This document shows positions 15,827 to 41,078 of a stretch of DNA of 64,000 nucleotides, in pieces. This DNA is from Callorhinchus milii. Its lineage: Eukaryota. The notes beneath the pieces were generated by a model. That model was not told the DNA's origin and did not search any database. It saw nothing but the letters and a program-made list of their open reading frames with translations. The stretch is from assembly GCF_018977255.1 (NCBI RefSeq), contig NW_024704742.1, positions 55,306,001-55,370,000 on the forward strand, given 5' to 3'. Position 1 is the stretch's first letter. Every line of letters begins with the position of its first letter. The position numbers and the translations under genes are program-made.

Positions 15827-15908
15827 CTGGTAGCATTCTCCAGCACCGACCGAGTAAGAAAACTCATCCAGAAGCCATCTCTTTTACCCAGGATCCATTC
15901 AATGATAC
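15827..15908 (-). CDS. ASAH1: Acid ceramidase exon 10 (82 nt)
   Basis: [32 protein letters not shown] boundaries. Confidence 0.96.
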
Positions 15909-16319
15909 CTAAAGAATAACTTATTTAATTTTTTTTTACCAATAATAAAGACTATGCGTTTCAAAGTCACGTTAGACAGGCTCAAACAATCCACTGAATC
16001 AGCTTTGGTTGTTTTTGACCGATGATGATTAAAAAAAGTTATTTTAATTCTCCTACAATTCAGCCATGAGCTCCAGTGATGCTTTTCACTCCCCCCCAAA
16101 GTTCTTATACTCCAAAATCTGAACATATTGACATTTTAAAAACTTCAATCTTTCTATGTTGACATACAAAGTTCCTATATAAACTAGACAAAAAGGGGTA
16201 GAAATAGAAAATTGGGTTAGGGTGTTTCAACTTAATATTGTTTGTTCTGAATCAAATTAAAGGAGTTCCACTTGCACAATATTTCAAATACACCGCGATT
16301 GAATAGATGAGCTATTTAC

Positions 16320-16374
16320 CAATATATCCTCCATCAATGTTGAAACGCTCATTCATTGTGAGTGTGAATATCCC
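16320..16374 (-). CDS. ASAH1: Acid ceramidase exon 9 (55 nt)
   Basis: GIFTLTMNERFNIDGGYI; AG/GT boundaries. Confidence 0.96.
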
Positions 16375-17055
16375 CTGCAAATAAACAGATACTTATGTTA
16401 CAACAAAAACAACTTGCCTTGATATATTGACCTTCGTGTAGGATAACGTCTCAGAGTAATTTCCAGTGAATGGGTCAGACGCCAAACAGAAGGGAGGGGA
16501 CCAGTGCTACAACACTGTTATTTGTTACAACACTGAAGTATCACAAAGTAAAATACTGCTATGGTGGTCAAGCTATGGTGCTACAAGAACAATTTAGACT
16601 TATATAGCACCTTCCAGATCAGTAGGATGTCTCAAAGCGCTTCACCAAACTCACTGGGAACGAGGAGAGAGGGGAGAGAAAAATAATTGCCAGTTTGTTC
16701 GAAAAGATAGATCTTAAGGTGGGCTTTAAAGGCAGGAAGGTAGGGCTAAAGCAGGTTGCATAGGAACAATATTTTTAAAAACAAAACCAGAAGTCGCTGG
16801 GAATACTCAGCAGGTCAGGCAAAACAATATTTTTAGATGCTTATCCTCAAACAAATGCATCTAATTTATTCTGTCGGTTCTAAATACGGTCACTATACTT
16901 TACAGTATATCCTGTGAGGCATTTGGGGATGTCCTCCCGACATGGCAAATACAAGTATTATTATTATGAAAATACAATATACAGTATTATATGCAAAATA
17001 TAATATATATGCAAATGCATAGTCCCACACCATCTCAGAATTGTTTAGTACTTAC

Positions 17056-17200
17056 AGGCCTCATGCCAGTCAACATTCCAACATATCCAGCAAAATTAGT
17101 GGATTTAAATATGGTTTTGTTGTTCCTCTGGAAATCTAGATTAACTGTTAAAGGTCGAAGATATTCTGGAATCTCCCAACTATGTTTTTTTATATCCCAA
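17056..17200 (-). CDS. ASAH1: Acid ceramidase exon 8 (145 nt)
   Basis: [50 protein letters not shown] acceptor, GTAAGT donor. Confidence 0.96.
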
Positions 17201-18222
17201 CTGCAAAAGAAGAAAATGGAAGGACAATTTACTCACAAAAGTCCTTTTTGTTGGAGTTATAACAGATGAGGAAATTATTACATCTCCTCAAACTATTGGG
17301 TTAATGCTTTCACAATGTATTTGATTATTGTCCTTCCCTCCCTGCATTAGCTCAGCACCACTTACAAAAGGTGAACATTGATTATCCACCAATCTCAAGT
17401 ATCCACAGTCAGGCCTCTTCTGTTATGGGAGATAATCAAGGATTCAATGTTCGGGAGCCTTTTTAACAACATCTTAAACTGGGGGTTTCAATCTTTCAAA
17501 ATAAGCATCTTCATGTCTCACATTTTTGAAGATTCACTTAGGCATTTTCTGCAATTACAGTTATACAAGTATAAAGATCTTCAGTATAAAGTGGGTTTGC
17601 TTATATGATCCTCAACATTTACTTAACCCTGTCCCCCACACCCTAAAAAAAATACAAGCACCATGTGCACTGTCATAGGAAAGTTAAAAATTGTTGACTT
17701 CCATGTCATCAGGTCACTGCTGAAATGAGTGGTTTCGGTGATGATGATCTGAATGTCAGTCAATTTGACACTCTGTGTGCCTGCCTGGCTGGCTGCTGGG
17801 GTTTCATCCCTTTGCACTCAGGCACAACGACTGCTGAAGTGCTGATCAGCAATCGTGCCCCTTTACAGTGCTTGTTTGAGGATACATTTGTTTAAAGAGC
17901 CTAACTAAACAGGCTACAATTGTAGTTTTCATATAAAAATCACAATGCAACACTGTAAAAATACACTACAGTTGGAGTTCCTACACAAAAAGATTCATTC
18001 TTTCACAAAATTACAGAAGAGCACTTTTACTAAATGTAGATGTTTATGCTGATTACTGCTGGGATAGAAACCATTCCTGACAGTTGCCTCGCAGTGACAT
18101 TTATGAAGGTAATATCAAAATCAAAAATGCTTTTTAAACTATCTGAAATATGATAATACGACATGACCATATTTTAATCACTACCAATAAACCAACTCGT
18201 TTTGCATGGATCTTGTACTTAC

Positions 18223-18268
18223 CCAAGAAACAATCCAAAATCCAGATTTCTAGCGTGGTATAACTTGC
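18223..18268 (-). CDS. ASAH1: Acid ceramidase exon 7 (46 nt)
   Basis: GKLYHARNLDFGLFLG; AG acceptor, GTAAGT donor. Confidence 0.96.
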
Positions 18269-18323
18269 CTGGAAATAAACATAATTGTGTTCAATTCATG
18301 TACCATGTTGTCTCAACAACATT

Positions 18324-18635
18324 GGAGTCCTGTAGCTCAGTGGTTAGAGCACTCGCTTTGCAAGCGAGAGACCTGAGTTCAATTCCAGGCAGGGCGAAAC
18401 CTTAGGCAAGTTTCCTTACTCCACACGCCTAATAATAATCCCTCCAAAACCAAAAACAATAATAAATTGGTCATTTTCAATCTACGACTGTTTGTGGGAC
18501 ATTGCTGTGCGCAATTGGCTGCCGCGTTCGCCCACAAATATACAGTCAATTCACTTTACAGTGTGTTCTGTGAAGCGCTTTGGGACGTCCTCCCGACGTG
18601 AAAAGCGCTATATCAAATGCAAGGATTATTATTAT
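18324..18635 (+). mobile_element. Young tRNA(Ala-like)-derived SINE, short variant, with 9-bp TSD
   Basis: GGAGTCCTGTAGCTCAGTGGTTAGAGC..GAGTTCAATTCC (A/B boxes); flanked by AACAACATT at 18315-18323 and 18636-18644. Confidence 0.92.
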
Positions 18636-18777
18636 AACAACATTAGTCATGGAATTAGAGAACTCAGCATAGCTTACCTCAAAGATTCGTATATTATGAT
18701 GCATTAAAAAGTGACCCATATTGTTTTATATTATAGAAAGACCCACATTATATTAAAAAGTGACTTATGTTATATAT

Positions 18778-18982
18778 GTTTTTTCCCAGCGAGTTGTTAC
18801 AACCTGGAATGCACTGCCTGAAAGGGGGTGGGGGAAACAGATTTAACAGTAGATTTCAAAAGGGAATTGATAAGGGAAAAATTGCAAGGCTAAGGGGTAA
18901 GAGTGGGATAGTTGGGTAGCTCTTTCAAAGAGTCAGCACAGGCACAAGGGGATGGTTCTGTGCTGTAATATTCGATGATTGT
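18778..18982 (+). mobile_element. CR1 3' end fragment
   Basis: Similar to 12765-13000. Confidence 0.75.
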
Positions 18983-19201
18983 AAAGTGACCTATATTATT
19001 AGACAAAAAGTAAAAGCTGACGATTATTTCTGATCCATCTTCCTCTGAATGCTTTTAAATTTTAATTTTTAAGTTTTTTTTAATTTTGCAATATTTTAAC
19101 TAAAGGGCCGTTTTAGTTTTCTTTCCCCATATTTCTTCCTGCTCTCACCATAAATATTTACCAGGACACCCAGTTAAGAGACTTCATAATTGCAAACATA
19201 C

Positions 19202-19276
19202 CAGTTGTATCTTCAGCTACAAGTGATGTACACACTGTGAATATTTCATAGAAGACATTGAAGAACATAACTTCCC
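19202..19276 (-). CDS. ASAH1: Acid ceramidase exon 6 (75 nt), includes the catalytic Cys
   Basis: [27 protein letters not shown] is the Ntn-hydrolase autocleavage site and nucleophile. Confidence 0.97.
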
Positions 19277-20452
19277 CTGTAATTTAAACAAGAAACTGCA
19301 ATGGTTAAGAAATAAGAGCACTCAAACCTGCTATATGCATTACTTTAAACAGACTTACTATGTTAAGAAAAGCAGTCACAACATTCTCCAGCCTAGAAAT
19401 TTATTGAAGCCGTTTCACAAATGTTACAACTGAAGTGAAGAATTCCTGTGTTGGAAGTCAAATATTTCACACCTGGGCCAGTCAGCATCAGCACCAAGTA
19501 CTCTCAAGTAGGGTGTTGAGTAAAGCTCCTGTTACACAACTTTATAAAGCGTCTTAAGCGACTCTCTACCCCCTCCTCGCTCCCTCCTTTCCCTCCCCTC
19601 ACCCTGACCATTTCCCCCCTGCTTGGGTCCTGACGTAAAAGGCACCATACAAATGTAATCTTGTTGTTGTTGATTCTAGGCTTCCTTATGGCAAGATCAG
19701 CAATTTAGATGCAATTAGTAACTTTATGTTGTGGGCTCCTTAGAGGATGCCAAACATCAGTTTAACACAGACCAGGGTTTAAACCTGCAGTATTTGAGTC
19801 TATTCGGCGCAGTATTGCACCAGACATTGCCTTTATCTTATAAGGCCTTTGGGAGGATTTCCTTAACTTTTAAAAGTCTGATTAGCAATCAGATGCAGAT
19901 GTTTATAACACTATGCCCATTAACCCAACACTACGTGTTACAGATGTTATCTCTTAACAGCCACCACAAAAGGATGTTTCATGATGATTGGTTTCACAGC
20001 TATTTTACAACCCAACACTTTTAGATTATATATGCAGGATAGCTGTCTAGGAGAATTAATAAATAGAATTCTTACTGAGAGGTTACCCTCCCACTCCCCA
20101 CAAATTGTTGTTTATCATTCGGAAGTACTTTATTGCAACCAAAAATACAACATAAAGCTCTTAAGGAAAATTCATTTAGTTTGGGATCCAATTTACCAGT
20201 GTTGAGCATCATGAATTGTCCCAACAGCCAGTGAGCTCTGATACTGATAAGTAGAGACAACCCCACCAATGAATCAATTATTATGATAAGATCACTATAA
20301 TAAGGATGATTCAGATGAAGAAGGCCCTACGGTCCATTTTATCTAATCTTTCCAGAATACCCACCGCACTGTCCCACATCAAAATCGAGCGACAAACAGC
20401 TGACTAATAAGTAATAAACATTTGACACATATTATAACAATAATTGCAATAC

Positions 20453-20531
20453 CCAAGGGCAGTCCAGAAACATCTGCGATTCCCTTTATTTCTTCATTAA
20501 ATGGAAAAGGAAGTGTGTCTACCAGCGGAGC
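20453..20531 (-). CDS. ASAH1: Acid ceramidase exon 5 (79 nt)
   Basis: APLVDTLPFPFNEEIKGIADVSGLPL; AG/GT boundaries. Confidence 0.96.
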
Positions 20532-21240
20532 CTGGAAGAAGAGGAAAAGGGTGTGAAACAATGTTACAAGGATTTCTAAAAATGTTATTGAGGGACACAC
20601 TGCCAGAATTAATTCTTGAATTGGTACTCTCAAACAAGCACAGAGAGTTTAGCCCAAGAACAGGAAAAGATACCAATACCAACTTCTTACTTTCTTATCT
20701 TGTTCCATCTCTCGCTTCAGAAATATAGCTCTGCTGCAAGGCAGTAATGTAACATAACACCATGCAGCTCATACAATATGAAATCTAGTCAGTAGAAAAA
20801 ATGAACACATGATGTATAGCCACCCAAAGCACATTCAGCACTACTTTATTGAAAGTCAACATTACAGTTAACATGGAGGTTTTAGCAACAAAATCAGCAT
20901 TTTTGCAACATAGTCTCTCAATCGTGTTATAAGTACTATCGAATATCATCTTAACAATGAAACGTCTAGGTTATAGAACATACAATTCTATAAACTACTG
21001 CATAAAATGGGCCAGGATGAATCTGAGGCATACAAAGTGCCTCAGATTCATCCTGCTCCACTTTATGCAGTAGTTTATAGAATTCTTTACCTAAGGCATA
21101 AATACAGAGCAATGAAGGCAAGTAACCACTTGGGTTTCAAACTTTTGAGGACAATAGACAGGACAAAATACAACCATATGCAAGACAGTGCCTGGCCATG
21201 TTTAGAAGTAAATTAGAAATAAACTGAATTGCATTCTTAC

Positions 21241-21327
21241 CAGATGTTTGTCCACGAGCTCAATCAGTTTGCCACTCGGGAAGAAGTCGTTTGCTAAATT
21301 CTTGATTGCCTGGATTAAATTTGTCAC
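21241..21327 (-). CDS. ASAH1: Acid ceramidase exon 4 (87 nt)
   Basis: VTNLIQAIKNLANDFFPSGKLIELVDKHL; AG acceptor, GTAAGA donor. Confidence 0.95.
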
Positions 21328-21679
21328 CTGAAATCAATCAATAAAACATATGCTTTAGAAGTGTTGTTTTTAATGTAAATGTAAAATTTAATTGAACACC
21401 ATCTAATATCAAATTAAAAACAAGTCTTGTGTAGTCTTCCTCTCTCCCTGAAAATATTCACTTGTGTTGGGAGCATATTTCTGTAAGTGCCTGGTGCCCT
21501 ATACGTTGCCCAGAGAGCTTTTCTTTATGTATGAGTTTAGACATTAGATATCAGCAAACTATTTGACTGAGGGAAGAAAAAAACATTAGAGAGGAGTCGG
21601 ATCCTATCCTGACCCTACGTTGCCATTACGGATTCCTGGATGATCAAATCTGGAGAAGGAAACCTTGCTCGTCTCTTTA

Positions 21680-22350
21680 AGTACCTTTGAATCTGTCTCC
21701 CGTTCCTCTCTCACCATCACTAAAACCTACATGAAACCGACCACCTGCTCCCTCGAACCCATCCCTACCCCTCTTATCTCTCAGCTCCATCTCCTTGCTC
21801 CCCCTACTCACCGACATCATAAACCTCTCCCTGTCCACTGGCACTATTCCTACTCCTGTAACAATGTCAGTCAACACTCCTATCCTTAAAAAACCCTCCT
21901 TCAACTCATCCCTCTCTGAAATTGCCATCCCATCTCCAACCTCTCTTTCCTTTCCAAGGTCCTGGAACAAGTCATTGGTTCCCAGCTTCGCTCCTTCTTC
22001 TCCCGCACACCCTCCACAAACCCCTCCAATCGGGTTTTTGTGCCGCCCACAGCACAGAAACAGCCCTGGTCAAAGTGACAAAGGACATTCTGTCCATCTG
22101 CGACCAGGACTCCCTCTGCCTGCTTGACCTCTCTACTGCCTTTGACACTGTGGACCACTCTACCCTCCTCCACGTCTCCGCCTCGCCCATCCCATCATTG
22201 GCGGGCAGGCCTTCAGCCTCTCTGCCCCCAACTTGTGGAACTCCATCCCGCATTCCCACCGCCTCGTCCCATCCCTTGCCTCTTTCAAGACCCGTCTCAA
22301 GGCCATCCTCTTCGACCGTGCCTTCGGTCACCCTGCTTTCCCCCTGCCCG
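21680..22350 (+). mobile_element. L2 LINE fragment with internal deletion
   Basis: MKPTTCSLEPIPT, TPILKKP, LQSGFCAAHSTETALVKVT, LLDLSTAFDTVDH, then a jump at about 22170 to the ORF2 C-terminal region. Confidence 0.9.
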
Positions 22351-22894
22351 AAGAATTCTGAATATAGTGTTTTCAATATTTTTTCAAACATTGGTTTACA
22401 AATATTTCCTGTTTCAAAACATGATGTAAAAAATTGTTGGAAGTAAGACACAGCAGAATGAAACTGAGTGACAGTAACAGATAAGAAATGAGGTGCTCAA
22501 AGATTAAATCGGACCCAGATTTAATTTTCTTCCAGCTGTACATACCCTTTCTAAAATACGTCAATAAGCTTAGCATCTTGCCATAACAATATGCTTCAGT
22601 TGCCTTCTTCCTCATAACACTTGTGCAAATTTGTGCTTCTGACATTTGTGCATTAAGTACTCAACTGGAACATAGAAGTTGAAGCATGTTAAAGTAAGCT
22701 ATTTTCTAAATGTTTAAGGAGAACAAATTATCAGTCTTTTTATTCACAACGTTGAATAACATCTGCATTACACCTCATATCAGTTTTCAGAAATGTATAA
22801 AAAAGGAGCCATAATTATCTAGCTGCATTCTTGTTTACAAACTTCTGATTTAGTACAACTATAGGAAATGACATTACGTCAGTATCATGAACAA

Positions 22895-23240
22895 AAGAAT
22901 AATATTCCTTGCATTTGATATAGTGCCTTGTATTGTCAGCAAAGGATTTTACTGTTAAGTGTAGTGACTGTATATTTGTAGCGAACATGGCAGACAATTT
23001 GAGCACACTGGGAACAACTCACTTCTCTTCAAATAGTGCCATAGAATCTTTATCGTCCACCTGAACAGGCCTTAGGGAGGATCTAGGGTTTTATGCTTTA
23101 TCCGAAGGTTGACTGACACATATCGAAATTGTAGAGCTCCTCCAGCAGTGTAACGGAGTAGAAGCCGACACCACAATCTTGGGACTTGAATCCATAACAT
23201 TCTGACTCAAAGGTAAGAGTTTTATAAACTGAGCCAGGCT
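22895..23240 (-). mobile_element. Deu-domain-like SINE with shared tail, diverged
   Basis: Reverse of ..GTTCAGGTGGACGATAAAGATTCTATGGCACTATTTGAAGAGAAG.. plus tRNA-like head and tail. Confidence 0.65.
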
Positions 23241-23354
23241 GTGACTGAGCACTGAACCACGAGTGTCAATCACCATTCTTAAAATGGTTCAACGATATAA
23301 AAAAATCATTGGTTTCTACAGAAGATATGCCCACACAAGAGATTGATCACATAC

Positions 23355-23445
23355 CTCTACTTTCTTGTCACTGATCAGCTGGTTCCACCTTTTATGTGGT
23401 GCAGAATCAAGATTTATTGTGTACCAAGGAATTTTTCCTTTAAAT
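23355..23445 (-). CDS. ASAH1: Acid ceramidase exon 3 (91 nt)
   Basis: FKGKIPWYTINLDSAPHKRWNQLISDKKVE; AG acceptor, GTATGT donor. Confidence 0.96.
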
Positions 23446-23614
23446 CTGTGTATGCAAGAAATCAGGACATTAACACTAATTTATGTACAGTATTACATTG
23501 AAGCAGAAGCGTTTATTCTCACTATGCTGAGAAGCAGAGGTCATTACATGAACGTCACACAGTTCAGCTGTCACTTTTGCTGACTGAACAAAAGAGCAGT
23601 TGTACATTCTTATT

Positions 23615-23902
23615 CTTCCTTTAAATGAAGGTGTTAAACCAAGGTCCCATGTGCCTGTTTAGGTGGATATTAAAGATACCATAGCATTATTCGAAAAGAG
23701 AAGGGAATTTATCTCAGTGACAATCCCCCAAATAAAATTGCTCATTCACTTCATGGCTGTTTATGGATATTGCTGTGTACAAATTAGGTGCCTTATTCGC
23801 CTACAAAATACACAGTCACTAGATTTCATGGATTATCATTTGAAGAGTACTGAGATGTTTTCCTGATATAAAAGGTGCAAAATATAAGGATTATTATTAT
23901 TT
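23615..23902 (+). mobile_element. Deu-domain-like SINE, 5'-truncated
   Basis: GTTAAACCAAGGTCCCATGTGCCTGTTTAGGTGGATATTAAAGATACC plus shared tail. Confidence 0.65.
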
Positions 23903-24388
23903 AATAATTAAGTTAGAAAGTGATCTGAGTAGTAAAAATTATGGCAAATGACGACATACGTCACAAGGTGGACCTATAAAGTGATACATTATTATTAAAT
24001 TCTTGGTTATGTCATTGTGCTGGATCTTTTTTGTACAGAGCAGACTGTGAATGGCAAACATGTAAAAACCACATTAAGCCTTACTGTTATAAATATAATT
24101 GAACTGTAATATATTGCCAAAAAGTAAAACTAAGAGCCCCTACAAACATTTTGCATAACATTTTGAACAGTTCATGCAGCATTTTGTAAGAGTAGATTAA
24201 AGTTTTCTGGTAGAGCCTTTGTGAAGCTGTTAAAAACAATTATATTCTTGGTACAACCTCCTTACTCCAGTTCCCAGGTCATAAAAATACACATTAAGGC
24301 ACTGAACCAGATTATACTACAGTTAAAAGTTTCCTTTATACAACCTGTGCTTTCAATTCATTGCCATCTACAATATTTTACTTCTTAC

Positions 24389-24435
24389 GTTGGGCCATGT
24401 GGAGGGTAAGTGCCTTTTCTGCATTCTTCAGAATA
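24389..24435 (-). CDS. ASAH1: Acid ceramidase exon 2 (47 nt)
   Basis: YSEECRKGTYPPHGPT; AG acceptor, GTAAGA donor. Confidence 0.95.
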
Positions 24436-24765
24436 CTGTGTAAAGAAAAGAAACATATGAACATTAAAGAGGTTCACTCTCTATTACACATTAGCAGCAA
24501 TAGGGGGTTGTGCCGAGGCCGCCAGATATTCTGATATTTCCTGGCTTTTAGGAACAGAAAGGCTGACATTTAAGTAATTAAGTGTACCAAAGGTCGCTCC
24601 CGATTTTAGTATCAGAAATTCTCAGTTCCTTATTTTGGAGCATTTTCCTCAACACACTCGTTGAAAATTGGCATTTTCAAGCAAATAGATTTAGAATTCA
24701 TTCACTGATGATGTCTAAACGTCTCATCTGATCAGAGTACACTAACTCCACCTATCCAGTACAAG

Positions 24766-25068
24766 TAATATAATAATAATCCTTGCATTTAATACAGCGT
24801 TTTTCATGTTTTCTCGACATCTCAAAGCGCTTCACCGAATAGACTGTAAAGCGAATTGATTGTATATTTGTGGGCGAAACGCGGCAGCCAATTGCGCACA
24901 GCGGTGTCCCACAAACAGTCATGGATTGAAGTGACCAATTTATTCTTTTATTCTTGAGGATTATCAGGCGTGTGGAGTAAGGAAACTTGCCCATGGTTTT
25001 GCCCTCCCAGGAATCGAGCCCAGGTCCCTCACATGCAAGGCGAGCGCTATAACCACTGAGCGACAGGA
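24766..25068 (-). mobile_element. tRNA-derived SINE, short variant
   Basis: Reverse-complement match to 18324-18635. Confidence 0.88.
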
Positions 25069-25656
25069 TGCACCCCTCCTGGGAACGAGTGCGCATTCCA
25101 ACAAATATCTTGGGATGCGTAGAGCTCTCAGTTTGGTTTGGGTATTCCTAGGCACGGTGGTGGGTTTCCCGCGTGTGCGGGACGCCCGGCTGACCCGACA
25201 AAAAGCAATAAGCCGACACGTCTTTTTTTTTGTCACTCGCACAAGAAAAAGACACAATTCGAAAAAAGAGTTAAATTGCGCCTTTTTTTTTTGAGCCTCG
25301 AGCCACCCTCCTTCCCCCCTCCCACCTCCCCGATCGGGTCCGTGAACACCGACCGTCCGGCGCCTCGGGACGGCTGCCTGAGGCGAAGGGCCCGACGCCA
25401 ACGGACCGGCGCCGCTGCCGGGTCAAACCGACCCCAGAAAAAAAAGTTCGAGAGGCGAAGCCCTGTCCAATTTCCTAACGCGTTTACCGGTTTTTGAAAA
25501 AAAAAACCACACACACGCACACAAATGCCACTCCTCCGGCCGAAGGCAAAAAAACAACAACGACGACGACAAAAAGAGACTCGAAAAAACGCTGCGGGGC
25601 GGACCCGGGAGGGAGGCAGCGGGAGCGGTTCGCAAGGCCGCGGGCGCGAGAGCTGA

Positions 25657-26665
25657 GGTCCTCACTCAACCTCTCCTTACACATAAACTCCCCCACTCAC
25701 AGTCACCCACTCGATTTGGTGATCACCCGGGGCCTCAGTGTCTCGGATGTCACTATTACCGACAAGGCCATCTCTGACCACTACTTCATCTCCTTCACCA
25801 CCTCCACCAGACCCACCACCATCTTCTACCGCCCCTGGAAGAAGTTACCCCCACAATCCCTAACCGCTGCCTTGGAGTCCTCTGAACTCCTCTCCCTCTG
25901 ACCTTCAACCCTCACCGACCACACAACTGGCACCGCCTTCCATCACCTCCGGAACATCGCCAGACTATGGCACTACCTCACCCCTCACGCTGCTGAAACC
26001 CTGGTCCACGCCTTTATCACCTCAAGGCTGGACTATGGGAACTCTCTCCTCGCCGGCCTTCCCGCCACCTCCCTCCACACTGCAGGTCATTCAGAACTCT
26101 GCAGCTCGTGTACTGTCCCGCACCAGGACCACATCACTCCCACCCTCGCTCGCCTCCACTGGCTTCCCATCCCCCAGAGGATCGAATTCAAGATCCTCAT
26201 CCTAACCTACAAGGCCATTCACGGCCTTGCTCCCTCCTACCTCTCCAACCTACTATCCCCCTACCTACCTGCCCGTACCCTCCGTTCCTCTGGCTCCGGT
26301 CTGCTCCACATCCCCCGCCCCAACCGCCCTACCATCGGTGGTCGGGCCTTCAGCCTCTCAGCCCCGAGGCTCTGGAACTCTATCCCCCATTCGCCGCTTC
26401 CTCCCTTTCCTCCTTCAAGGCCGGTCTCAAGACCTTTCTCTTTGACTGTGCCTTCAGCTCCCCTCTCGACTCTCTACCCCCTCCTCGCTCCCTCCCTTCC
26501 CTCCCCTCCCCTGACCATTTCCCCCCTCCTCGCTCCCTCCCTTCCCTCCCCTCACCCTGACCATTTCCCCAATGCTCGGGTCATGACCCAACTGTACAGC
26601 GCCTTGGGACGTCCTCCTGACGTGAAAGGCGCTCTATAAATGGAATCTTGTTGTTGTTGTTGTTG
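25657..26665 (+). mobile_element. Young L2 LINE: endonuclease-end segment joined to 3' part
   Basis: HINSPTHSHPLDLVITRGL..KAISDHYFISF, then from about 25921 the ORF2 C-terminal region and (TTG)n tail; small tandem duplication at 26475-26570. Confidence 0.9.
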
Positions 26666-26877
26666 AGGTCTCCAACAGCCGTCGCGGCGGCGCCGTTCCT
26701 TTTCCGCCGGTCTCGCCCTTCGACCGCTTCCCCCCCACTCCCCGGCCCTCGGCCCCCACCCCCTCCGCCCAGACCCCCCCCCCTGGACCTTCCCCCAGAC
26801 CACCCCCCATGATTAACGAGGGGGTAACAGGGCTCCGGCTCCCACCGCCCTCCAAATAACCGGGGGGGGGGGGGGGG

Positions 26878-27030
26878 ATTGGCTGCCGCGCGCGCCGCCC
26901 ACCGACGCACGGTCACTACACACAGTCACTACACTTCGCGGTCTGCGCTCTGCGAAGCGCTTCGGGAGACGTCGAGGAGACGCGCTCTGTCAAACGCCAG
27001 GACTGTCGCTGCTGCTGTTATTGTTGTTGA
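26878..27030 (+). mobile_element. SINE 3' half, strongly GC-shifted
   Basis: Collinear with 18515-18635: TTGGCTGCCGCG..GCCCAC..TCTG(C)GAAGCGCTT..GCGCT(C)T(G)TCAAA(C)GC(C)AGGA. Confidence 0.8.
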
Positions 27031-27110
27031 TGCCGCCGACGCCTGGTGGTGGGGGCGGTGGTGGGGGCGGCGATTGTGGGAGAGACGTGTTGGGAAGCGG
27101 AGTCACTCAC

Positions 27111-27173
27111 GGGCGGTAGGTCCTGAGCCACAGAGGAGAGCGCCGGGAGGAGGAGGAGGAGGAGCGGCGCCAT
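27111..27173 (-). CDS. ASAH1: Acid ceramidase exon 1, coding part (signal peptide)
   Basis: GCGAAGATGG Kozak context; MAPLLLLLLPALSSVAQDLPP; GTGAGT donor in phase 0, matching exon 2. Total CDS 1173 nt = 390 aa. Confidence 0.9.
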
Positions 27174-27484
27174 CTTCGCTGTCACTGACTGTCACTGGCG
27201 GCGGCGGCGGCCCCGCGCAGGCGCACTCTGCCACAGGGGCCCGGGAGCCGTCACTGCGCGCGCACCGCGTGGGGGGGGGTCAGCACTCTCTGCTGCCGCC
27301 ACCACTGAGCGAAGGACTCGGTTTCCAGCAGCGACAGCGGCGCTGACGTGTACTGTGTGACGGCCGAGGAACCACAGGTCCGGGCGGCAAAACCCAGGCC
27401 AGGAAATTAGAAGTTGTGAATGAGAAGCACTCCCTCCCCCCCCCTCACCCCCCGTACACATGGGCTGTGCCGCCCAGCGAGCGG

Positions 27485-27560
27485 CACGTGACTTGAGCGC
27501 GTGACGCCGTTGTTCCAGTTTTAGTGGAATCAGGTGATAGCGCTCAGTCAGTCATGTGAC
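27485..27560. promoter_or_regulatory. CLEAR/M-box-like E-boxes upstream of ASAH1
   Basis: CACGTGAC at 27485-27492, CGCGTGAC at 27498-27505, GTCATGTGAC at 27551-27560; lysosomal hydrolase promoters typically carry MiT/TFE CLEAR motifs. Confidence 0.6.
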
Positions 27561-28320
27561 CAGAGGGGGGGGGGCATGTGACCAGAGGGGGCATGTGACC
27601 AGGGGGGGGGGGCATGTGACCAGAGGGGGGGGGGGGCATGTGACCAGAGGGGGGCATGTGACCAGGGGGGGCATGTGACCAGAGGGGGGGGGGCATGTGA
27701 CCAGAGGGGGCATGTGACCAGGGGGGGCATGTGACCAGAGGGGGGCATGTGACCAGGGGGGCATGTGACCAGAGGGGGGCATGTGACCAGAGGGGGCATG
27801 TGACCAGGGGGGGCATGTGACCAGAGGGGGCATGTGACCAGAGGGGGGGCATGTGACCAGAGGGGGGGGGGGCATGCGACCAGGGGGGCATGTGACCAGA
27901 GGGGGGGCATGTGACCAGAGGGGGGCATGTGACCAGAGGGGGCATGTGACCAGAGGGGGCCATGTGACCAGAGGGGGCATGTGACCAGAGGGGGCATGTG
28001 ACCAGAGGGGGCATGTGACCAGGGGGGGCATGTGACCAGGGGGGGCATGTGACCAGGGGGGGCATGTGACCAGAGGGGGATGTGACCAGAGGGGGGGGGG
28101 GGGGCAATGCGACCAGAGGGGGGGGGGAGCAATGTGACCAGAGGAGGGGGGGCAATGTGACCAGAGGGGGGGGGCAATGTGACCAGAGGGAGGGGGGGGC
28201 AATGTGACCAGAGGGAGGGGGGGGCAATGTGACCAGAGGGGGTGGTAGCAATGTGACCAGAGGGTGGGGGGGGCAATGTGACCAGAGGGGGGGGGGCAAT
28301 GTGACCAGAGGGGGGGGGGC
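27551..28320. repeat. G-rich minisatellite, about 35 units of about 18-26 bp
   Basis: Unit CATGTGACCAGAG(G)n; distal units become CAATGTGACCAGAG(G)n. Confidence 0.96.
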
Positions 28321-28842
28321 TGTATTGTAGAAAGTTGATATCAACTCAGGTTTCTCACATGCAGAGGATTTTATTTTGCATTTTAAAGTTACATTAGATA
28401 AGATGTAGGACACAGAGGATTTCACTTTATGTAAATCCAGTATGAAATAAGATCGTCAACAGTGAAACCACTTGCAGATATTTTACATACAACTACACAG
28501 GAAGGCGTTTGTGTGGATTTAGCATTGGGGCCAGAAGTCAGCTGTTACTTTTTCTTCCCTATTCCTCTAAGTATCTCCATTACAGAATGTCATATTCATT
28601 CAAGTAATATGTTGCACCTGAATATAAAATCTATTTATACAGCAGAAATTAAAAACAACATTAATTGTATATGCAAGCACACCAAAAGTCCTCAGAACTT
28701 TTTTTAAAAAAATGGGTTGTTTTAAGTTACATATATACAAACACTGAATGTTGCTGGCTCTGCAGCAATATCTGCTCACCAAGCACCACAGAAAAATAAA
28801 TCCTTAAAAGATTCAATTAAACAAAAAACATATTAATTCACT

Positions 28843-28879
28843 TCATTTGCAGTATCTATCAGCTTTCATCTTGGCTCTC
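28843..28879 (-). CDS. FRG1: FRG1 exon 9 (37 nt incl. stop)
   Basis: RAKMKADRYCK*; CAG acceptor; conserved FRG1 C-terminus. Confidence 0.96.
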
Positions 28880-29064
28880 CTGCAAACCAAAAAACAGAAG
28901 TTACATGTTTGAAAAAAAACTCATGAAGAATTTCTAGAATGTAAATAACAATAATCCTTATATTTGGTATAGTCGTTCATGTCAGGAGGAAGTCCTGAAG
29001 CGCTTCACAGGATATCCTATAAAGCGCAGTGCCTGTATGCTCTTAAAACCTTATTCGTACCTAC

Positions 29065-29175
29065 CTATCTAGTAAAGCCTCATGGAAAGTACCATCTTCC
29101 CTGGCTTTTTTCAGCATTTTACTGTCCTCCTCGTTTACTCTCAGTTTCCGATCTTGAAAACTCTGGAACTTTTTT
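29065..29175 (-). CDS. FRG1: FRG1 exon 8 (111 nt)
   Basis: [39 protein letters not shown] acceptor, GTAGGT donor. Confidence 0.97.
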
Positions 29176-29310
29176 CTGCAACAGAAGAATATATTACATG
29201 AAAATTCAAAAATTAATCTGTAAAACATGCCTACGGTATAATAATTCAACATAAAACAACCCCCAAATTTACGTTAGCTAGGAAGGCTTTTTAAATTTAA
29301 AAATCACAGT

Positions 29311-30365
29311 TTAAGGGCAATGATGATTTATGCATTACATAACTAGTAATGGATTGATTTATGATTATAAAACTAGTAAATGGATGAACAACAACAACAA
29401 CAACAACAACAAGATTACATTTATAAAGCGCCTTTCACGTCAGGAGGACGTCCCAAGGCGCTGCATAGTTGGGTCATGACCCGAGCAGGGGGGAAATGGT
29501 CGAGGGGAGGGAGCAAGGAGGGGGGAAATGGTCAGGGTGAGCGGAGGGAAGGAGGAGCGAGGAGGGGGAAGAGAGTCGAGAGGGGAGCTGAAGGCACGGT
29601 CAAAGAGAAAGGTTTTGAGACCGGCCTTGAAGGAGGAAAGGGAGGAGGCGGCGAAGGCACTTGGGGATGGAGTTCCAGAGCCTCGGGCTGAGAGGCTGAA
29701 GGCCCGACCACCGATGGTAGGGGTTGGGCGGGGGATGTGGAGCAGACCGGAGCCAGAGGAACGGAGGGTACGGGCAGGTAGGTAGGGGATAGTAGGTTGG
29801 AGAGGTAGGAGGGAGCAAGGCCGTGAATGGCCTTGTAGGTTAGGATGAGGATCTTGAATTCGATCCTCTGGGGGATGGGAAGGCAGTGGAGGCGAGCGAG
29901 GGGAGTGATGTGGTCGCGAAGCCTGGTGCGGGACAGTACACGAGCTGCAGAGTTCTGAATGACCTGCAGCTTGTGGAGGGAGGTGGCGGGAAGGCCGGCG
30001 AGGAGAGAGTTCCCATAGTCCAGCCTTGAGGTGACAAAGGCGTGAACCAGGGTTTCAGCAGCGTGAGGGGTGAGGTAATGCCGAAGTCTATTTGTCTCTA
30101 CAAACACCATGATTAGGTGAACTTTTAGTTGCAGAATTTGGAAAATATTGCATACATTTGAAGCTTTAATATAATTCAAGAATGCCTATCCGAACTACTT
30201 TTTCCAAACAGTTTTACAATCTTGGATTATATTAAAGCTTCAAATGTATGCAATACTTTACAAATTCTGTAACTAAGAGTTCACCTAATATTGATGTTTG
30301 TAGAGACAAATAAGACTTCAATCCATTTACTGGTTATATAATACATAAATCATCATTGCCCTTAA
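29311..30365. mobile_element. Palindromic MITE-like element flanked by TTAA, split by an L2 insertion
   Basis: TTAA-GGGCAATGATGATTTATG at 29311 and CATAAATCATCATTGCCC-TTAA ending 30365; 30087-30180 is the inverted copy of about 30220-30315. Confidence 0.75.
29388..30086 (-). mobile_element. Young L2 LINE, 3' about 700 bp
   Basis: [65 protein letters not shown]; (TTG)n tail. Confidence 0.93.
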
Positions 30366-31239
30366 AATTAGTTAGCTTCACTTTATAAAGTGAAAGGGGC
30401 AGAAAATATAGGCAGAGAAACCAACAGGAATAAGAATAGATGACAATGTTCAACAACATTAAGAGAGTACAGAATCCACAAAGGATCAGACCAGAATGAA
30501 ACTATAAAGTATACATTAGTCATTTAATAATTCATTTTGTTTCTTGTCAGTGGTGATTTATTGCTTAAATTCATTAAGAACTATAGAATCAAAAATCAAA
30601 TTAAAGCCACCAATAGAACCATGAAAATAGAGCTGTATTTTCTGTCACTTTGCTAATGCCCCAAAGTGTTATAAAGCACTTTGGTGTCAAAAACTTCTAT
30701 TGTCACAGTATAAAATTTGTAGATGGAGCTCAGTGAACCTGTCCTCTTCAATCAGTGAAACATTGCAGACAGTTAGAAAGGTAGTAAGAGAACTTTCCTT
30801 TAATTTTTGATTCTTTGGGTCAAGTTTGTGCAAGTCAGTTTCTTTCTAGTTTAGATGAGGTTTAAGAGTTTCTTTAGGATGTCACAACTCTAATTTTTGA
30901 ATATCAGCTCTCTATTGCAATATTCTTGCAGGTTGAAGCTCCGAGTAGTGTAAGAAGCTGAGAAAGACTGCCTTATCAGCCTAAAATTGGGGCAGTTTTC
31001 TACTGTCAACTTCTCCCCACCAGAAACTACCAAAAACTGCACAAAGTAATTTCTATTAGAAACTAGTCACCGACAATAGAAAGATACTCATGCCAGCTGG
31101 ACATGTGAGCCCACAACCAGATGATGATATGATGATATACTGCAGCCATTGACAACCGTTGTAATTCTTATTTCAAATAATCTTGAATTGTTAGATCTTA
31201 TTCTGATAGTCAGAAGTTAAGCACCAGTCTTGTACATAC

Positions 31240-31331
31240 ACATAGTTGATTTCACACTGCTTCACATTGCCCTTGTCTTCCTCTATAAGTTCATCTTTCT
31301 TCTTTCTTTCAATTTCAGCAGAGGAACGGAT
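31240..31331 (-). CDS. FRG1: FRG1 exon 7 (92 nt)
   Basis: [33 protein letters not shown] acceptor, GTATGT donor. Confidence 0.96.
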
Positions 31332-31419
31332 CTGTTTTAAAATAAATGTGTTGGTTACTGATACAAGGTAAAATATACATAGGAGCTGCAGCTACAACTT
31401 GCTACTTTGTATGAGATAT

Positions 31420-32195
31420 CAGTCTATCTCAGTTGGTAGCACTCTCTGAGTCAGAAGATTGTGGTTTCAAGTCCTATGATGGAGTTTGAGACACTCCAAT
31501 GCAGTGCTGGGAAGCACTCCATTGTCAGAGATGCATCCTTCAAATGAGATGTTAAACTGAGCTCCCATCTGCCTTTAATAATAATAATAATCCTTGCATT
31601 TGATATAGCACCTTATCTAGTCTTTGGGATGTTTCAAAGCGCTTCACAGAATACACTGTAAAGTGAATTCACTACATATTTTGTAGGCAAAACACGGCAG
31701 CCAATTGCACACAGCAGTGTCCCACAAACAGTCGTGGGTTGAGTGACCAATTTTTTTGTGAAGGAATTATTACCCCCGGAAAAGCGATCCGTCAATCGAC
31801 TAACAACCAGGTTCCTACTTACTACTAAGGAAACAGAGGCGTGTGGAGTAAGGAAACTAGCCAGCTTCGCCCTGCCGGGAAGGCGAGTCTGGCTGGGTGT
31901 GTGTTGGAGGGGAGATTTGTTGGCTGATCTGTGACTATCAAATCCAAAGTCTTCAAATAATTTATTTAAAGCTTCAAATGTGTGCAATATTTTCCAAATT
32001 CTGTAACTAAAAGTTCACTTAATTGTGGTGTTTGTAGAGACAAATAGACTTCATCCATTTACTAGTTATATAATCTGGAGAGGCAAATGCTCTAACCACT
32101 GAGCTACAGGACTCCACGAGTTTCAAGGTGAACGTTGGCATTGTTTGAAAAGAGAAGGGAGTTGCTCTTAGTGTCCTAGCCAACAATCCTCCAGA
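31420..32195. mobile_element. Nested cluster: Deu-like SINE (+) interrupted by a tRNA-SINE (-, 31577-32117) that is itself interrupted
   Basis: Deu core stops at about 31576 and resumes at about 32120; SINE body 31577-31885 and head 32075-32117 are separated by about 190 bp of locally copied DNA. Confidence 0.7.
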
Positions 32196-32368
32196 TAAAA
32201 ATGGGCTATCTACAGCATTTCACTAGCTTGCTGAGTACTTCAGAATGGTCATATGGCACTTGTGAATTTAGTAAAAAAAAGAAAGCTTTCATCTCTTGGC
32301 ATGAGCAAGTGAAACAACATCAACTCATCATTCCCAGATTTTATACAAAATAAATCCACGTGACTGAC

Positions 32369-32473
32369 CTTTATCATCTCTTCCTCTCCAGCGGTTTTTT
32401 GTTTTGCCACAATGTCACCTTCTTCATTACAGGAGATGAAGCGGCTGTTTGAAGCCATCAACGCCAACTTTCC
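32369..32473 (-). CDS. FRG1: FRG1 exon 6 (105 nt)
   Basis: [37 protein letters not shown] acceptor, GTCAGT donor. Confidence 0.96.
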
Positions 32474-32519
32474 CTGAAAGAAGGTAAAGTATGTAACAGA
32501 GATGCACCCTATACAAAGA

Positions 32520-33402
32520 ACTTCCATATGTATGTGGATGACACCCAACTCTATCTTTCTGCCTCCACCCTCAACTCCAGGACCACTGCTGTCCTGACAG
32601 ACTGTCTGTCAGACATCAAGTCCTGGATGAGGGCAAATTTCCTACAGTTGAATGTGAACAAGACTGAGGTCCTCCTGATTGGCTCTCGCCAGCGCCTCAG
32701 CACCTCAGGCTCTGGCAACATCAACCTCCATGGTTGCACACTACAACTCACAAAGCCAGTCAGGAACCTCGGTGTCTTGTTCGACCCTCAATTGTCTTTT
32801 CTTCCCCACATCCAAGCCATGACACGCTCTGCCTTCCCTCACCTCCATAACATCACCCGACTCCACTACTACCTCACCCCTCAGGCCACTGAAACTCTTG
32901 TTCGTTCTGTCATCACCTCTGCAGCCTGTGTCCTCTCCCGCACCCATCTCCCCCATTCTCACCCGACTCCATTGGCTCCCTATCCTTCAGAGGATCCAGT
33001 TCAAGATCCTGGTCTTCACCTACAAAGCCCTCCATGGTCTCGCCCCACCCTACCTCTACGACCTCCTAACCCCTTACCAACCTGCCCGCTCCCTCCGCTC
33101 AGCCGGCTCTGGCCTGCTCCACCTCTCCCGCCCACCCGGCCCACCATTGACGGGAGAGCCTTCAGCCACTCTGCCCCCAACCTCTGGAATTCCATCCCCC
33201 AGTCACTCTGCCTCGGCCCCTCCTTAACCTCCTTCAAGTCCCGCCTCAAAACCCTCCTCTTCGACCATGCCATTGGTCACCCCCCTTTCCCTCGCCTCTT
33301 GCCCCGATCCCAGCTCGGGGCTGAAATGCTGTACACTGTCCAGCGCCTTGGGATGTCCTCCCGAAGTGAAAGGCGCTATACAAATGTAATCTTGTTGTTG
33401 TT
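32520..33402 (+). mobile_element. L2 LINE, 3' about 880 bp
   Basis: [41 protein letters not shown]; (TTG)n tail; internal deletions. Confidence 0.93.
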
Positions 33403-33748
33403 AACAGAAAGTATTTCAAAAATTATGCGTTGCTGGTTGTAAAGGCATCACCATCCAATGTAGCAATAGTCCGTACAGGCCAGTAGGTACAGGCTTGAAT
33501 CCTCGTCTCTGCTGAGTTATCTGATCATAGTCAGGATATAGCTATCACTGATCTTAATAAATAAATAATTTAAAGACTTCGGATTTGATAGTCACAGATC
33601 AGCCAACAAATCTCTCCTCCAACACCACTGACTGGCAATTTTGCTGTTTGGGATACTTGAAGAAAATGTGACAAAATACTTTTTAGGATTATTCCTCTCA
33701 AAGAATAGACACGATGAAAAAAACAGCAAATAACCATAAGTAACTTAC

Positions 33749-33863
33749 TTCCTGGAAAACTGGCTCCCACTGCTCTCTTGACCCAATTGCATCTGATCGT
33801 CCAATAACTACTGCATCGGAATTTATTCCCAGATATTTTCCATAGCCAGACTTTAGTGCTATT
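33749..33863 (-). CDS. FRG1: FRG1 exon 5 (115 nt)
   Basis: [40 protein letters not shown] acceptor, GTAAGT donor. Confidence 0.97.
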
Positions 33864-34375
33864 CTGTTGGAAATAATGTCAAATATAACAAAGCTTTTAA
33901 ATGGCTTAGATTGAGAATTATATTTAAAAAAATGAAAACAAGAGTTCTTCCACTGTGTCACAGATTGTGCCAGTCTAGTAATCTAATTATTATCTAACTT
34001 CTGTCGAATTGGTTCATTAAACATCATCCTGTCATAAATTTGCCTAATGTACCATACAGTAGTGCCATCAAATACCTTCATACTAGAGTAAAAAAAGAAC
34101 ATTCGCTTTCCCTCTAATAACCCTGAGAAAATATAAAAAATAGAATTCATATCAATGTCATTGTGCAAATATGAAAATTTCACCAGAATCTGTCCCTTTT
34201 TAATCTTGCTGCCTTGACTTACCTGAAGGTATTGTGGCAGGTTTACCTTTTTTAAAAAAAACTAATTTAGCATCATATCCTTTTAAGGCCTCCTTTTTAG
34301 GCTTAAAAAGATTACCTTATCCAATCATTCCTTCCACATCCTCTCCTCACAACACTTATCAATTGCATTTCTCAC

Positions 34376-34433
34376 CTGCTGTCCGACAACTTAATTGCAG
34401 TGAATTGCTCCGGAGGATCTGGGCCTTCATCAT
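34376..34433 (-). CDS. FRG1: FRG1 exon 4 (58 nt)
   Basis: DDEGPDPPEQFTAIKLSDSR; AG acceptor, GTGAGA donor. Confidence 0.96.
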
Positions 34434-35249
34434 CTGTTATAAAATATCATAAATCAAATGTTTCACTAAACTTAAAAAAAATTGATTAGCCATGCAGCAA
34501 ATTTAGAGGATAAATGATCTTTAAAACAATGATTCACTACGAATGCAGTCATTTTCAAACCAAACCATCCGTCTGAAATTGCACAGAAAAGAATTATATT
34601 TAAAAAATGATCATAAGATCATAATGGAAATATAAAATTCAATAGTATTAATATCATATATAAAGTTCAATAGTATTAATGACCAGAAGAGTAGCTAATT
34701 CTAGAAATCACTAAGTTGCATTAACTAAAATTTGCCAATTAAGTTTTCTTCCAACTCATATTCAAAATCCAAACCATTTTGTTTGGTCAGCCTGGTGTCT
34801 GACACATGAGGAAAACTATCACCGTGCTTAAGGCTATTCAAATCAGACAGAGTTCCACATATGCACGCCACCTATGCATAGAAATTTCTGTGTGTTTGGA
34901 TGGATGCACTTAGCTTACCGAATTCTGCAAAGTATTAGGTTGCAGGTTACTGAGAGCCGAGGCTGAAACCACATAGTGGCCACTGGCAAGCATCTGACTG
35001 CTTCTCCAGCGAGGACCACCCTACCCGTTAGGGCTTCAGTTTGCCATGATATCGCTGCAAGAATCCCTTCGCCAGTTGACTTATGAACCCATTGGCTGGT
35101 CTGTCATTACTTGTGCTTTGGAGGTCCTCAGACTGAATCAGATGACCCACTCCCGACGAGTACGATTCTATTTGAAATTCTCAGACAATAGCATTAGGTT
35201 TAAAAGCATTAACTATCACAGACAAAGAATTACAAATCATGTGACAAAC

Positions 35250-35372
35250 CTTTATGTGGTGCTCCAAGAGAAAAAAGACCATTGTCAAGGGCATGGATGA
35301 AGGTCCCTTTGCCCATCTCTATCGCCACAGTTCCTGTGATTGATCCAAAACCCTGGACTGCCCACCATCCTC
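35250..35372 (-). CDS. FRG1: FRG1 exon 3 (123 nt)
   Basis: [43 protein letters not shown] acceptor, GTTTGT donor. Confidence 0.96.
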
Positions 35373-35864
35373 CTATACAGATAAATCATTCATGTAACTT
35401 TGTGTAAGAGGTACTGTACCAAAGAGGACTTGGACAAGAACACAATGCGTAATACAGGGTGACTCCAGCATAAAATGCCTCGCTAGAGTGCGAGTGCCCT
35501 AAAATGCAGGTGCGCTGTGGTCTCTATGGATTAGCCGGCTTCCTGCACAATGCATGGAGCAGTCCATTTGGTCAGCTGAGCATTTTCCATCTCACAAGAG
35601 TAAACTTCCTGTGCAAACTAACCAATATCCTGCACAATCGGTGTGATCAGATGTGACCAATTTCATGATGGAAACGCTCAGCTTACCAACTGAAATGCTC
35701 TGTGCGTGTGCAGGAAGCCAGCTGGTTCATGCTCCAGGAGTATCATCAGTGGCAACCTGCTGACCCAGAAGAGGACTGGAGGTCATTTTCTCCCTGGATC
35801 TGTTATAAATGGTATTTAATTCTATCAACTGAGAACACTATTCCGCAAACCAATCAGCCCCGTT

Positions 35865-36380
35865 CTTGCCTGGCTTCATTGGCTCCCTATCCCTCAGAGA
35901 ATCGAGTGCAAAACCCTCGTTCTCACCTTCAAAGTCCTCCACAGTCTTGCTCCACCCTACCTCTCCGACCTCCTAACCCCATATCAGCCTCTCTGCTCCC
36001 TCCGCTCGGCGGACACCGGCTTCCTCCAGGTCCCCTGCACCATTCCACCATTGCCAGTCGAGCATTCAGCATGTCCCCGCACTCTGGAGCCCCCACACTC
36101 TGGAGCTCTATCTTGCAATCTCTCCGCCACCCTCTCTTGCCTCTTTCAACAATAACAAAATTAAATTTCTATAGCGCCTTTATAGGGGACGTCCCAAGGC
36201 ACTGGAGGTCAAGTCCCGTCTAAAGTCCTTACTCTTCGGCCACCTTCCCACTCCCAACTCCCCTGCCCTCCATCCCTCCTGACCCCAACTCCAACCTCAG
36301 GTCCAAACCCCTGACTGTCCAGCGCTCTGGGACGTCTTTCTGACGTGAAGGGCACTATACAAGTGTAATTTGTTGTTGTA
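35865..36380 (+). mobile_element. L2 3' fragment containing a short inverted tail piece (about 36148-36205)
   Basis: Matches L2 3' ends in the window. Confidence 0.8.
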
Positions 36381-36458
36381 TGTTATAGTGGGTTTCCTTG
36401 TAGCTTTCACTAAGCTTTTAAACATTGTGGTTCAATTATGTATTTGTAAGCCACTTAC

Positions 36459-36526
36459 CAACAATGTCAACTGCGTCCTCCTCATCCGCTTCTCGTTTCC
36501 TTTTGCCTTTATTTTTCTTCTTTTTG
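36459..36526 (-). CDS. FRG1: FRG1 exon 2 (68 nt)
   Basis: KKKKNKGKRKREADEEDAVDIV (basic NLS region); AG acceptor, GTAAGT donor. Confidence 0.94.
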
Positions 36527-36759
36527 CTAAAATAAAAATAATTATGGTCAGAAAGGTGAAAGGAATACAAGAGTGAGAACTGCAGAAACTATTGTACAAC
36601 CTTAAGTTGGAAATAATTCTCGGGCCAGAAAAAATCAACCACCACGGGCCCCCCTAATGTAAGTGAATGCCGTTGACAGGACTGACTGAAACCAAACTGC
36701 ACACAGTCACCCCAAGCTAAACACAGTCACAGTAACACCATCGCCTCGCACCAAAAAAT

Positions 36760-37255
36760 ACTACAATTTACATTTCTATGGCGCCTTTCAGTTTGGGAAG
36801 ACATCTAAAACTGTTCGACACTGCTGGCTGTGTACTGGGCCTGGGGGCTGAAGGGGATGGGGAAGAGAAATATGACCGAAAGAGTGATTAAAGAGCAATG
36901 TCTTGAGACGGGCCTTGAATGAGGAGAGAGAGGGAGTGTGTTGGAGAGATGAAATTCAAGGGAGCGAAGGAAAAATGACAGAATGTGGGGCGGATGAAAT
37001 GGAAAGCATGAAGCAGGGCCAGTGTTAGCTGAGCGAAGGGAGTGAGTGACTCTGTCAATAGACTGAAGGAGATCTGAGGTGGAGCGAGGCCACCGTAGGG
37101 ATTAAGAGGTGAGAACGAGGATCTTAAATCCGATCCGTTGGAGGAGAGTGCACAGTGCAGCGAAGCTAAGACGATAGGCTTGTGAAGTCAAGTATGGGAG
37201 AGAACATGGGGGGCAGAGTTCTGGATAGTCCAGCGAGCAGGGAGAGAGCGTAGCC
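36760..37255 (-). mobile_element. Old L2 3' fragment
   Basis: Diverged reverse match to L2 3' ends. Confidence 0.6.
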
Positions 37256-37263
37256 AAGCCTTG

Positions 37264-37637
37264 GGAGTCCTGTACCATATTGGGTAGAGCACTCGCCTTG
37301 CAAGCGAGAGGACGGGTTTGACTCCCGGGCAGGACGAAACTTTAGGCAAGTTTCCTTACTCCCCACGCCTGTTTACTTGGCAGTAAATAGGAACCTAGTT
37401 GTTGGTCGATTGACGGATCGCTTTTTCGGGGGTAATAATCCCCTCAAACATAAATAAATTATAATTTCTTCGCCCAATCCAGGAGTGTCTGTGGGACACC
37501 GCTGTGCACAATTGGCTGCCGGGTTTCACACACAAAATACACAGTCAATTCACTTTACAGTATATTCTGTGAAGCGCTTTGAGACGTCTCGAAGACGTTA
37601 GACTCTAATTCAAATGCAAGGATTATTATTATTATTA
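37264..37637 (+). mobile_element. tRNA-derived SINE, long variant
   Basis: Collinear with 3241-3610; directly abuts the large minisatellite. Confidence 0.88.
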
Positions 37638-37644
37638 TACATCC

Positions 37645-40990: not shown

Positions 40991-41078
40991 CTCACTGACT
41001 GTCCTGTCTGTGCTGGAGGCCGGGCCGGGTCAGGCCCGCGGGCCGCTCCTCCTCTGATGAACAGTTCAAACCGCAAAC

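Follow-up and report, generated by a model that had tools for sequence, protein, structure and literature searches.

The acid ceramidase gene of Callorhinchus milii is preceded by a G-rich tandem array whose units carry CATGTG boxes, and the question that this locus raises is whether binding sites of the MiT/TFE and USF factors have been multiplied there as a regulatory device, or whether a minisatellite has grown from a promoter piece that happened to hold one such site. The whole stretch of DNA that was analysed, hereafter the window, is 64 kb long. That the array is present directly upstream of ASAH1, at 27551-28320, is confirmed, and its G-rich strand is the plus strand.

The identification of the gene as ASAH1 in the preliminary description proved correct, as exon identity and whole-protein mapping agree. 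A 44-residue exon (13948-14079) matches solved acid ceramidase with an E value of 1.5e-16 and is 100% identical to C. milii acid ceramidase records. The C. milii protein was placed by tblastn on 13 exons from 24435 to 10259, and translation from the minus-strand ATG at 27173 yields its N-terminus, so that ASAH1 has 14 exons with a coding span of 10259-27173 and an exon 1 donor at 27110. Among five proteins tested against Pfam, the ASAH1 exon at 17056-17199 gave no match. Downstream of ASAH1, a coding exon of TFIIE alpha (GTF2E1-type) lies at 1660-2153 on the minus strand (Pfam E value 8.9e-28). The upstream neighbour, in tandem on the minus strand, is FRG1 (28843-41134), of which three of three tested exons match Pfam FRG1; its ATG (41134) and its last exon, with the stop codon at 28845-28843, were placed by eye according to what we take to be the ends of the FRG1 protein. 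A predicted sturgeon protein fuses FRG1 with ASAH1, which suggests that the tandem order is probably old and present in ray-finned fish too. A CpG island (26670-27550; GC 0.68, CpG observed/expected 0.86) covers ASAH1 exon 1, and the array adjoins its upstream edge with an observed/expected ratio of 0.03 and two CpG in all. Rfam gave no match in 24500-29500.

In the window sequence, which comes from one assembly, the array comprises 39 units arranged head-to-tail over 770 bp, rather than the approximately 35 first claimed. The units are built as ATG(T/C)GACC, then AG or AGAG, then a G-run of 5-14 (at least seven G in 22 of 39 units); the linkers had been given as G5-G15, and the long G-runs hold up but the upper length does not. 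Units are spaced by 16-27 bp, most often by 17 (14 of 38 intervals), and Tandem Repeats Finder splits the array into two blocks with periods of 17 and 25. A 16-base unit pattern, allowing at most two mismatches, has 38 matches in the window, every one within the array, against an expectation of 0.06 and none of 100 shuffles comparable. The CATGTG core occurs in 28 units, with one TCATGTGA (unit 1), 26 GCATGTGA and one CCATGTGA, and is broken in the other 11, which comprise one GCATGCGA, one GGATGTGA, eight CAATGTGA and one CAATGCGA.

These classes are distributed in order along the array. Unit 1 (27551-27574, plus strand) is GTCATGTGAC, the full form with one mismatch to CLEAR, followed by AGAG10; it does open the minisatellite, as had been described, runs on into unique promoter sequence and is the sole unit with a full flank. 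In the proximal block, units 2-29 (27575-28079, plus strand), 27 of 28 units carry CATGTGAC, with the 5' T replaced by G (26) or C (1), and the remaining unit reads CATGCG. The distal block, units 30-39 (28080-28320, plus strand), lacks the CATGTG core in all ten units; one has GATGTG, and nine have CAATG, the change rightly said to break the box. Its linkers are longer and more diverged than elsewhere in the array, and the last unit ends in AGAG10 as unit 1 does, beyond which the sequence is unique.

Contigs of four sequencing runs, among 24 listed, were aligned to 26670-27600, a range that includes 50 bp at the start of the array, the RNA or DNA nature of each run being judged by guess. In both DNA-like runs the long contigs stop at 27487-27489, and 27551-27600 is covered by a contig in only one of the four runs, a DNA-like one, at a depth of about 2; a gap in contig cover by itself is no proof of absence. 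Cover of the first units in one of two DNA-like runs is what would be expected if a shorter repeat had been expanded in assembly or its G-runs miscalled; a spread of G-run lengths from 5 to 14 is typical of homopolymer error as well, and both TGCGACC variants come after long G-runs. However, collapse or random error would not produce two sub-families in order or higher-order patterns that recur (units 1-3 and 7-9), 394 of the 524 distinct 31-mers of the array are unique, and the low-depth contig, from an independent-looking run, carries units 1-3 at at least 90% likeness. We consider it very unlikely that the length or unit detail of the array is an assembly artefact.

Short repeats near the array vary among the runs, which marks the region as indel-prone, while leaving the length of the array itself unaddressed. 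A 12-base tandem repeat at 27045 is one copy shorter (12 bases out) in two of four runs; the leucine stretch in the ASAH1 signal peptide (27145-27165) has one or two extra codons, that is 3 or 6 bases inserted at 27145, in three of four; and a 10-base insertion with a G-run occurs at 27273 in one of four.

The RNA-like evidence places part of the promoter within the transcript. An RNA-like run has a contig of 435 bases that spans 27111-27509 and continues at its free end into the beginning of exon 2, which identifies it as spliced ASAH1 RNA; exon 1, as far as this contig extends, is therefore 27111-27509 on the minus strand. The CACGTGAC box, which had been put about 310 bp 5' of the ASAH1 ATG and was found at 27485-27492, 312 bp away, hence lies in the transcribed leader of some transcripts at least, and the array starts at most 42 bp beyond the furthest spliced RNA base. 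The RNA end at 27509 is no evidence for a start site, because DNA cover stops here too. The 336-base leader contains one upstream ATG (27461), whose 89-codon frame ends shortly before the main ATG, and the long ASAH1 leader may be a minor form or one with damped translation.

Motifs were scored literally as given in papers, with the CLEAR element and motif definitions from the available parts of PMC7815692 and PMC6954422, and TCA(T/C)GTGN as the MITF ChIP motif from the Fig. 1 legend of PMC7427332. Only three sites in the 64 kb are within one mismatch of GTCACGTGAC; two are the single-copy site at 27483-27492 (GTCACGTGCC on the gene strand, minus, one mismatch, within the transcribed leader) and unit 1, leaving one for the remaining 63 kb. 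Between the ATG and the last base of unit 1, a span of 401 bp, there are thus two near-CLEAR sites, a number reached by none of 3000 dinucleotide shuffles (mean 0.023). Within 27170-28330, TCA(T/C)GTGN occurs only at 27491 and in unit 1, and two weaker CLEAR-like elements, with three mismatches each, lie between the two strong sites (27496-27538, minus strand). Human ASAH1 is under MITF control according to the consulted part of a review (PMC6672050); ASAH1 is unmentioned in the available main text of PMC11436898. Based on the excess of sites over shuffles and the control of the human gene, the ASAH1 promoter is likely to be genuinely of the MiT/USF type, and this control would likely depend on the two strong single sites. 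A perfect CLEAR element that underwent deamination could be the origin of unit 1.

Whether the amplified copies share this quality decides much of the remaining argument, since the array had been described as a series of CLEAR/M-box-type boxes. The site at 27483 and unit 1 qualify as CLEAR elements, with one mismatch each near the start of a lysosomal gene. None of the 38 later copies comes within one mismatch, 27 being at two and 11 further away; the 5' T of the MITF motif is kept in none of the 38, which leaves TCA(T/C)GTGN in unit 1 only (1 of 39), and the core is lost in 11 of the 38. What survives of the description is a looser M-box, a core with a 5' T and/or a 3' A, as 28 of 39 units have the core with a 3' A and one of 39 has both flanks. 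The GTCAC half-site is kept in 28 of 39 units, with the GGTCAC half-site intact. A duplication boundary falling just inside the motif would account for the G that stands in place of the 5' GT in the copies.

Published binding data point to weakness of such copies, with some qualification. According to the available part of PMC10539308, MITF binds CATGTG less well than CACGTG, loss of a flank costs CATGTG more, and a one-flank M-box was more than tenfold weaker than a CLEAR box, although the box so measured lacked the 3' A and not the 5' T, and is the other variant. Since the 3' A is present in all 28 core units, and MITF is said to favour a 5' T, a 3' A or both (PMC6672050, consulted in part), the copies may bind after all. 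MITF peaks over double sites are more than additive in the accessible text of PMC7427332. For USF1, ChIP at the heterozygous SNP3 preferred CACGTGACC over CATGTGACC, and the latter may bind less often (PMC2709586, available portion). We infer that the copies are weak, USF-leaning E-boxes. USF2 can repress at CLEAR motifs in competition with TFEB (PMC12087643), a competition also described in the available part of PMC11436898, and an effect of the copies could therefore have either sign. As the array has two CpG only, its boxes cannot be closed by methylation, and for the same reason a methylation test of the array would tell little.

These properties bear on the idea of a copy-number dial, in which the 28 CATGTGAC units would act together as a homotypic cluster of low affinity, and the length of this cluster would set the occupancy by USF2 versus TFEB and, with it, the starvation output of ASAH1. 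The array begins within 42 bp of the furthest spliced RNA base, 28 of 39 units retain the 3' A and the GTCAC half-site, and USF2 and TFEB compete at CLEAR motifs; MITF control of human ASAH1 and the precedent of the TYMS VNTR (PMC4184792, available part) speak for the idea as well. However, no copy among 38 has TCA(T/C)GTGN, the array is known as a minisatellite from a single assembly while a dial requires polymorphism and a dose response, and in hTERT VNTR2-2 reporters, as far as the consulted part of PMC2915984 goes, the repeat number had no clear relation to expression. The chance capture of a box is also not rare, at 3.7-7.9% as given below. Such a dial appears doubtful to us.

The position of the array between two genes suggests another role, in which its length and G-strings would part the FRG1 3'-end from the ASAH1 promoter, perhaps recruiting USF together with a VEZF1-like dG-string binder. 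A predicted FRG1 poly(A) signal, AATAAA at 28370-28375 (minus strand), the only one on the gene strand within 28300-29100, lies 50 bp from the distal array end, and the array makes up 770 of the 861 bp between this signal and the furthest ASAH1 RNA base (27509); minus the extra copies, the gap would be about 115 bp instead of about 860 bp. Runs of at least seven G, the length that VEZF1 needs at the beta-A globin site, are found in 22 of 39 units, and chicken HS4 pairs VEZF1 and USF sites (PMC2795164 for both, available part). ASAH1 and FRG1 alike have the G-rich strand as their template, so that a predicted G-quadruplex would form on the template. The poly(A) signal is, however, a prediction only, and human close tandem genes are enriched in G-rich motifs on the transcribed strand and depleted in (G)9 (PMC8972054, available text), whereas here that strand is C-rich. 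Most units also differ from a 14-letter CTCF consensus at three positions. On this balance, we regard a role as spacer or boundary as rather improbable.

Two related candidates were rejected. A CTCF-site array would need better matches than the 14-letter consensus finds here, with no window at 0-1 mismatch, one at two and 49 at three; and a MAZ-type G-rich pause or terminator disagrees with the C-rich transcribed strand, by the strand rule in the available part of PMC8972054. As for the earlier suggestion that the linkers fold into G-quadruplexes, a potential for folding is indicated, as the G4Hunter mean is 1.41 over the array and 71% of 25-base windows score at least 1.2, but the canonical short-loop pattern (four tracts of at least three G, loops of 1-7 nt) has no match inside the array. 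Loops of 10-13 nt separate most of the G-runs, and matches appear when loops of up to 12-15 are allowed; ViennaRNA folding with the G4 option predicted a quadruplex in three of three pieces, under a model not tuned for DNA.

The array has company in the window, where five arrays longer than 100 bp cover 8.9% of the 64 kb. Exon 1 of FRG1 sits between two minisatellites, one at 41204-41996, 70 bp upstream of the FRG1 ATG, and one of 3.3 kb at 37648-40986, beginning about 90 bp into intron 1. As the first exon of the non-lysosomal FRG1 is flanked by long arrays too, the position of an array next to a first exon is nothing unusual at this locus; in the human genome, too, VNTRs are more frequent close to promoters and CpG islands (PMC8096271, available part). 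The FRG1 upstream unit and the ASAH1 unit share TGTGACCA plus AGAGGG, a likeness equalled in 6 of 2000 shuffles, although the comparison was made post hoc. A 30-bp minisatellite of about 20 copies occupies 14365-14974 in an ASAH1 intron. The word at 26904-26934 in ASAH1 intron 1 is covered by contigs of depth 80-135, a depth which indicates that it is multi-copy in the genome, and 13 of its letters form the core of the array in FRG1 intron 1, with 140 occurrences there; some minisatellite units here may derive from a dispersed motif.

How easily an array of this kind would come to carry E-boxes was estimated by drawing random promoter pieces of 17-25 bp and circularising them (50000 draws each). 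A 7-mer of this kind was present in 3.7% of pieces from the island and 7.9% from the leader, compared with 0.5% elsewhere in the window, and box capture therefore needs no selection. The array counts as one event, not 39. Unit 1 joins unique promoter sequence and AGAG10 also closes the last unit, so that the two borders are as tandem duplication of a roughly 22-bp segment would leave them. That a promoter E-box has been amplified, as the preliminary description held, is the simplest origin, unit 1 being near-CLEAR, but the likeness of the unit to the FRG1-promoter array weighs against a seed that is purely local.

Based on these findings, we propose, with a probability of about 0.55, that the minisatellite arose by local duplication of one near-CLEAR site and that its copies are weak, with a modest effect at most. 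Unit 1, a near-perfect CLEAR/M-box followed by a ten-G run, would have been the seed; slippage at the G10 run beside this real E-box would have grown the array from a segment of about 22 bp whose boundary lay just within the motif. The copies would have partial occupancy by USF1/2, joined by TFEB/TFE3/MITF only when these are abundant in the nucleus, with a small net effect on ASAH1 that would amount to modest modulation at most. In that case, the array would be one outcome of the way in which this genome generally tends to multiply short local segments beside first exons. Besides the kept 3' A and the more than additive peaks over double sites, two observations count against this reading: selection could explain why boxes are kept gene-proximally and lost distally, and the unit likeness to the FRG1-promoter array hints at a shared progenitor, which argues against a purely local seed.

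Known systems help to place the array, which would work, if at all, like the E-box repeats of TYMS or hTERT. Like the human TYMS 28-bp 5' UTR VNTR, a 5'-end tandem repeat of USF-type E-box units, some of them broken (PMC4184792, available part), the ASAH1 array is a promoter tandem array with a factor-site motif in its unit. In the same text the TYMS repeat has 2-3 units, polymorphism and a reported effect, whereas the ASAH1 array has 39 units of MiT/USF-type CATGTGAC at a lysosomal gene and is known from sequence alone. The hTERT VNTR2-1 resembles it as a long minisatellite, many repeats of which contain an E-box also found in the promoter of the gene, but is intronic, polymorphic and of the MYC-type CACGTG (PMC2915984, available part), while the ASAH1 array is directly upstream, with CATGTG, few CpG and long G-runs. 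The original work on the TYMS VNTR is reportedly that of Mandola et al. in 2003.

With MiT/TFE target promoters, as characterised in the consulted parts of PMC7815692, PMC6672050 and PMC7427332, the locus has in common that the 5'-end of a lysosomal hydrolase gene holds, within 70 bp, two sites with a single mismatch to GTCACGTGAC; it differs from them in the 38 later copies, which have two or more mismatches to CLEAR and no 5' T, and in that its sites are predictions. The chicken HS4 barrier shares with it an E-box that adjoins G homopolymers where a CpG island ends, but is a single-copy CpG island with a CTCF site and shown barrier activity (PMC2795164, available part), whereas the ASAH1 array is CpG-poor, repeated, devoid of a good CTCF match and read from the letters of one genome. 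In the open-licence literature, no paper was found that describes a minisatellite of CLEAR elements or M-boxes at a lysosomal gene, nor any on minisatellites of this species.

The minisatellite is thus real and the MiT/USF promoter real-looking, while the link between the two is putative. The boldest reading joins the regulatory ideas, in that a length-variable, low-affinity, methylation-proof E-box array would let competition among USF2, TFEB and TFE3 set the starvation slope of acid ceramidase and would also block FRG1 read-through, as a rheostat of the CLEAR network; we hold this to be improbable. In people, loss of ASAH1 leads to Farber disease. If the copies bind and vary in number, the locus would be a natural test of how the number and affinity of CLEAR-type sites set the output of a lysosomal gene. 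More likely, it is another case of a genome multiplying short local motifs beside first exons, and the array is then mainly a caution that a motif match in a repeat unit need not mean function. The two strong single sites, for their part, suggest that MiT/USF control of ASAH1 dates back to cartilaginous fishes.
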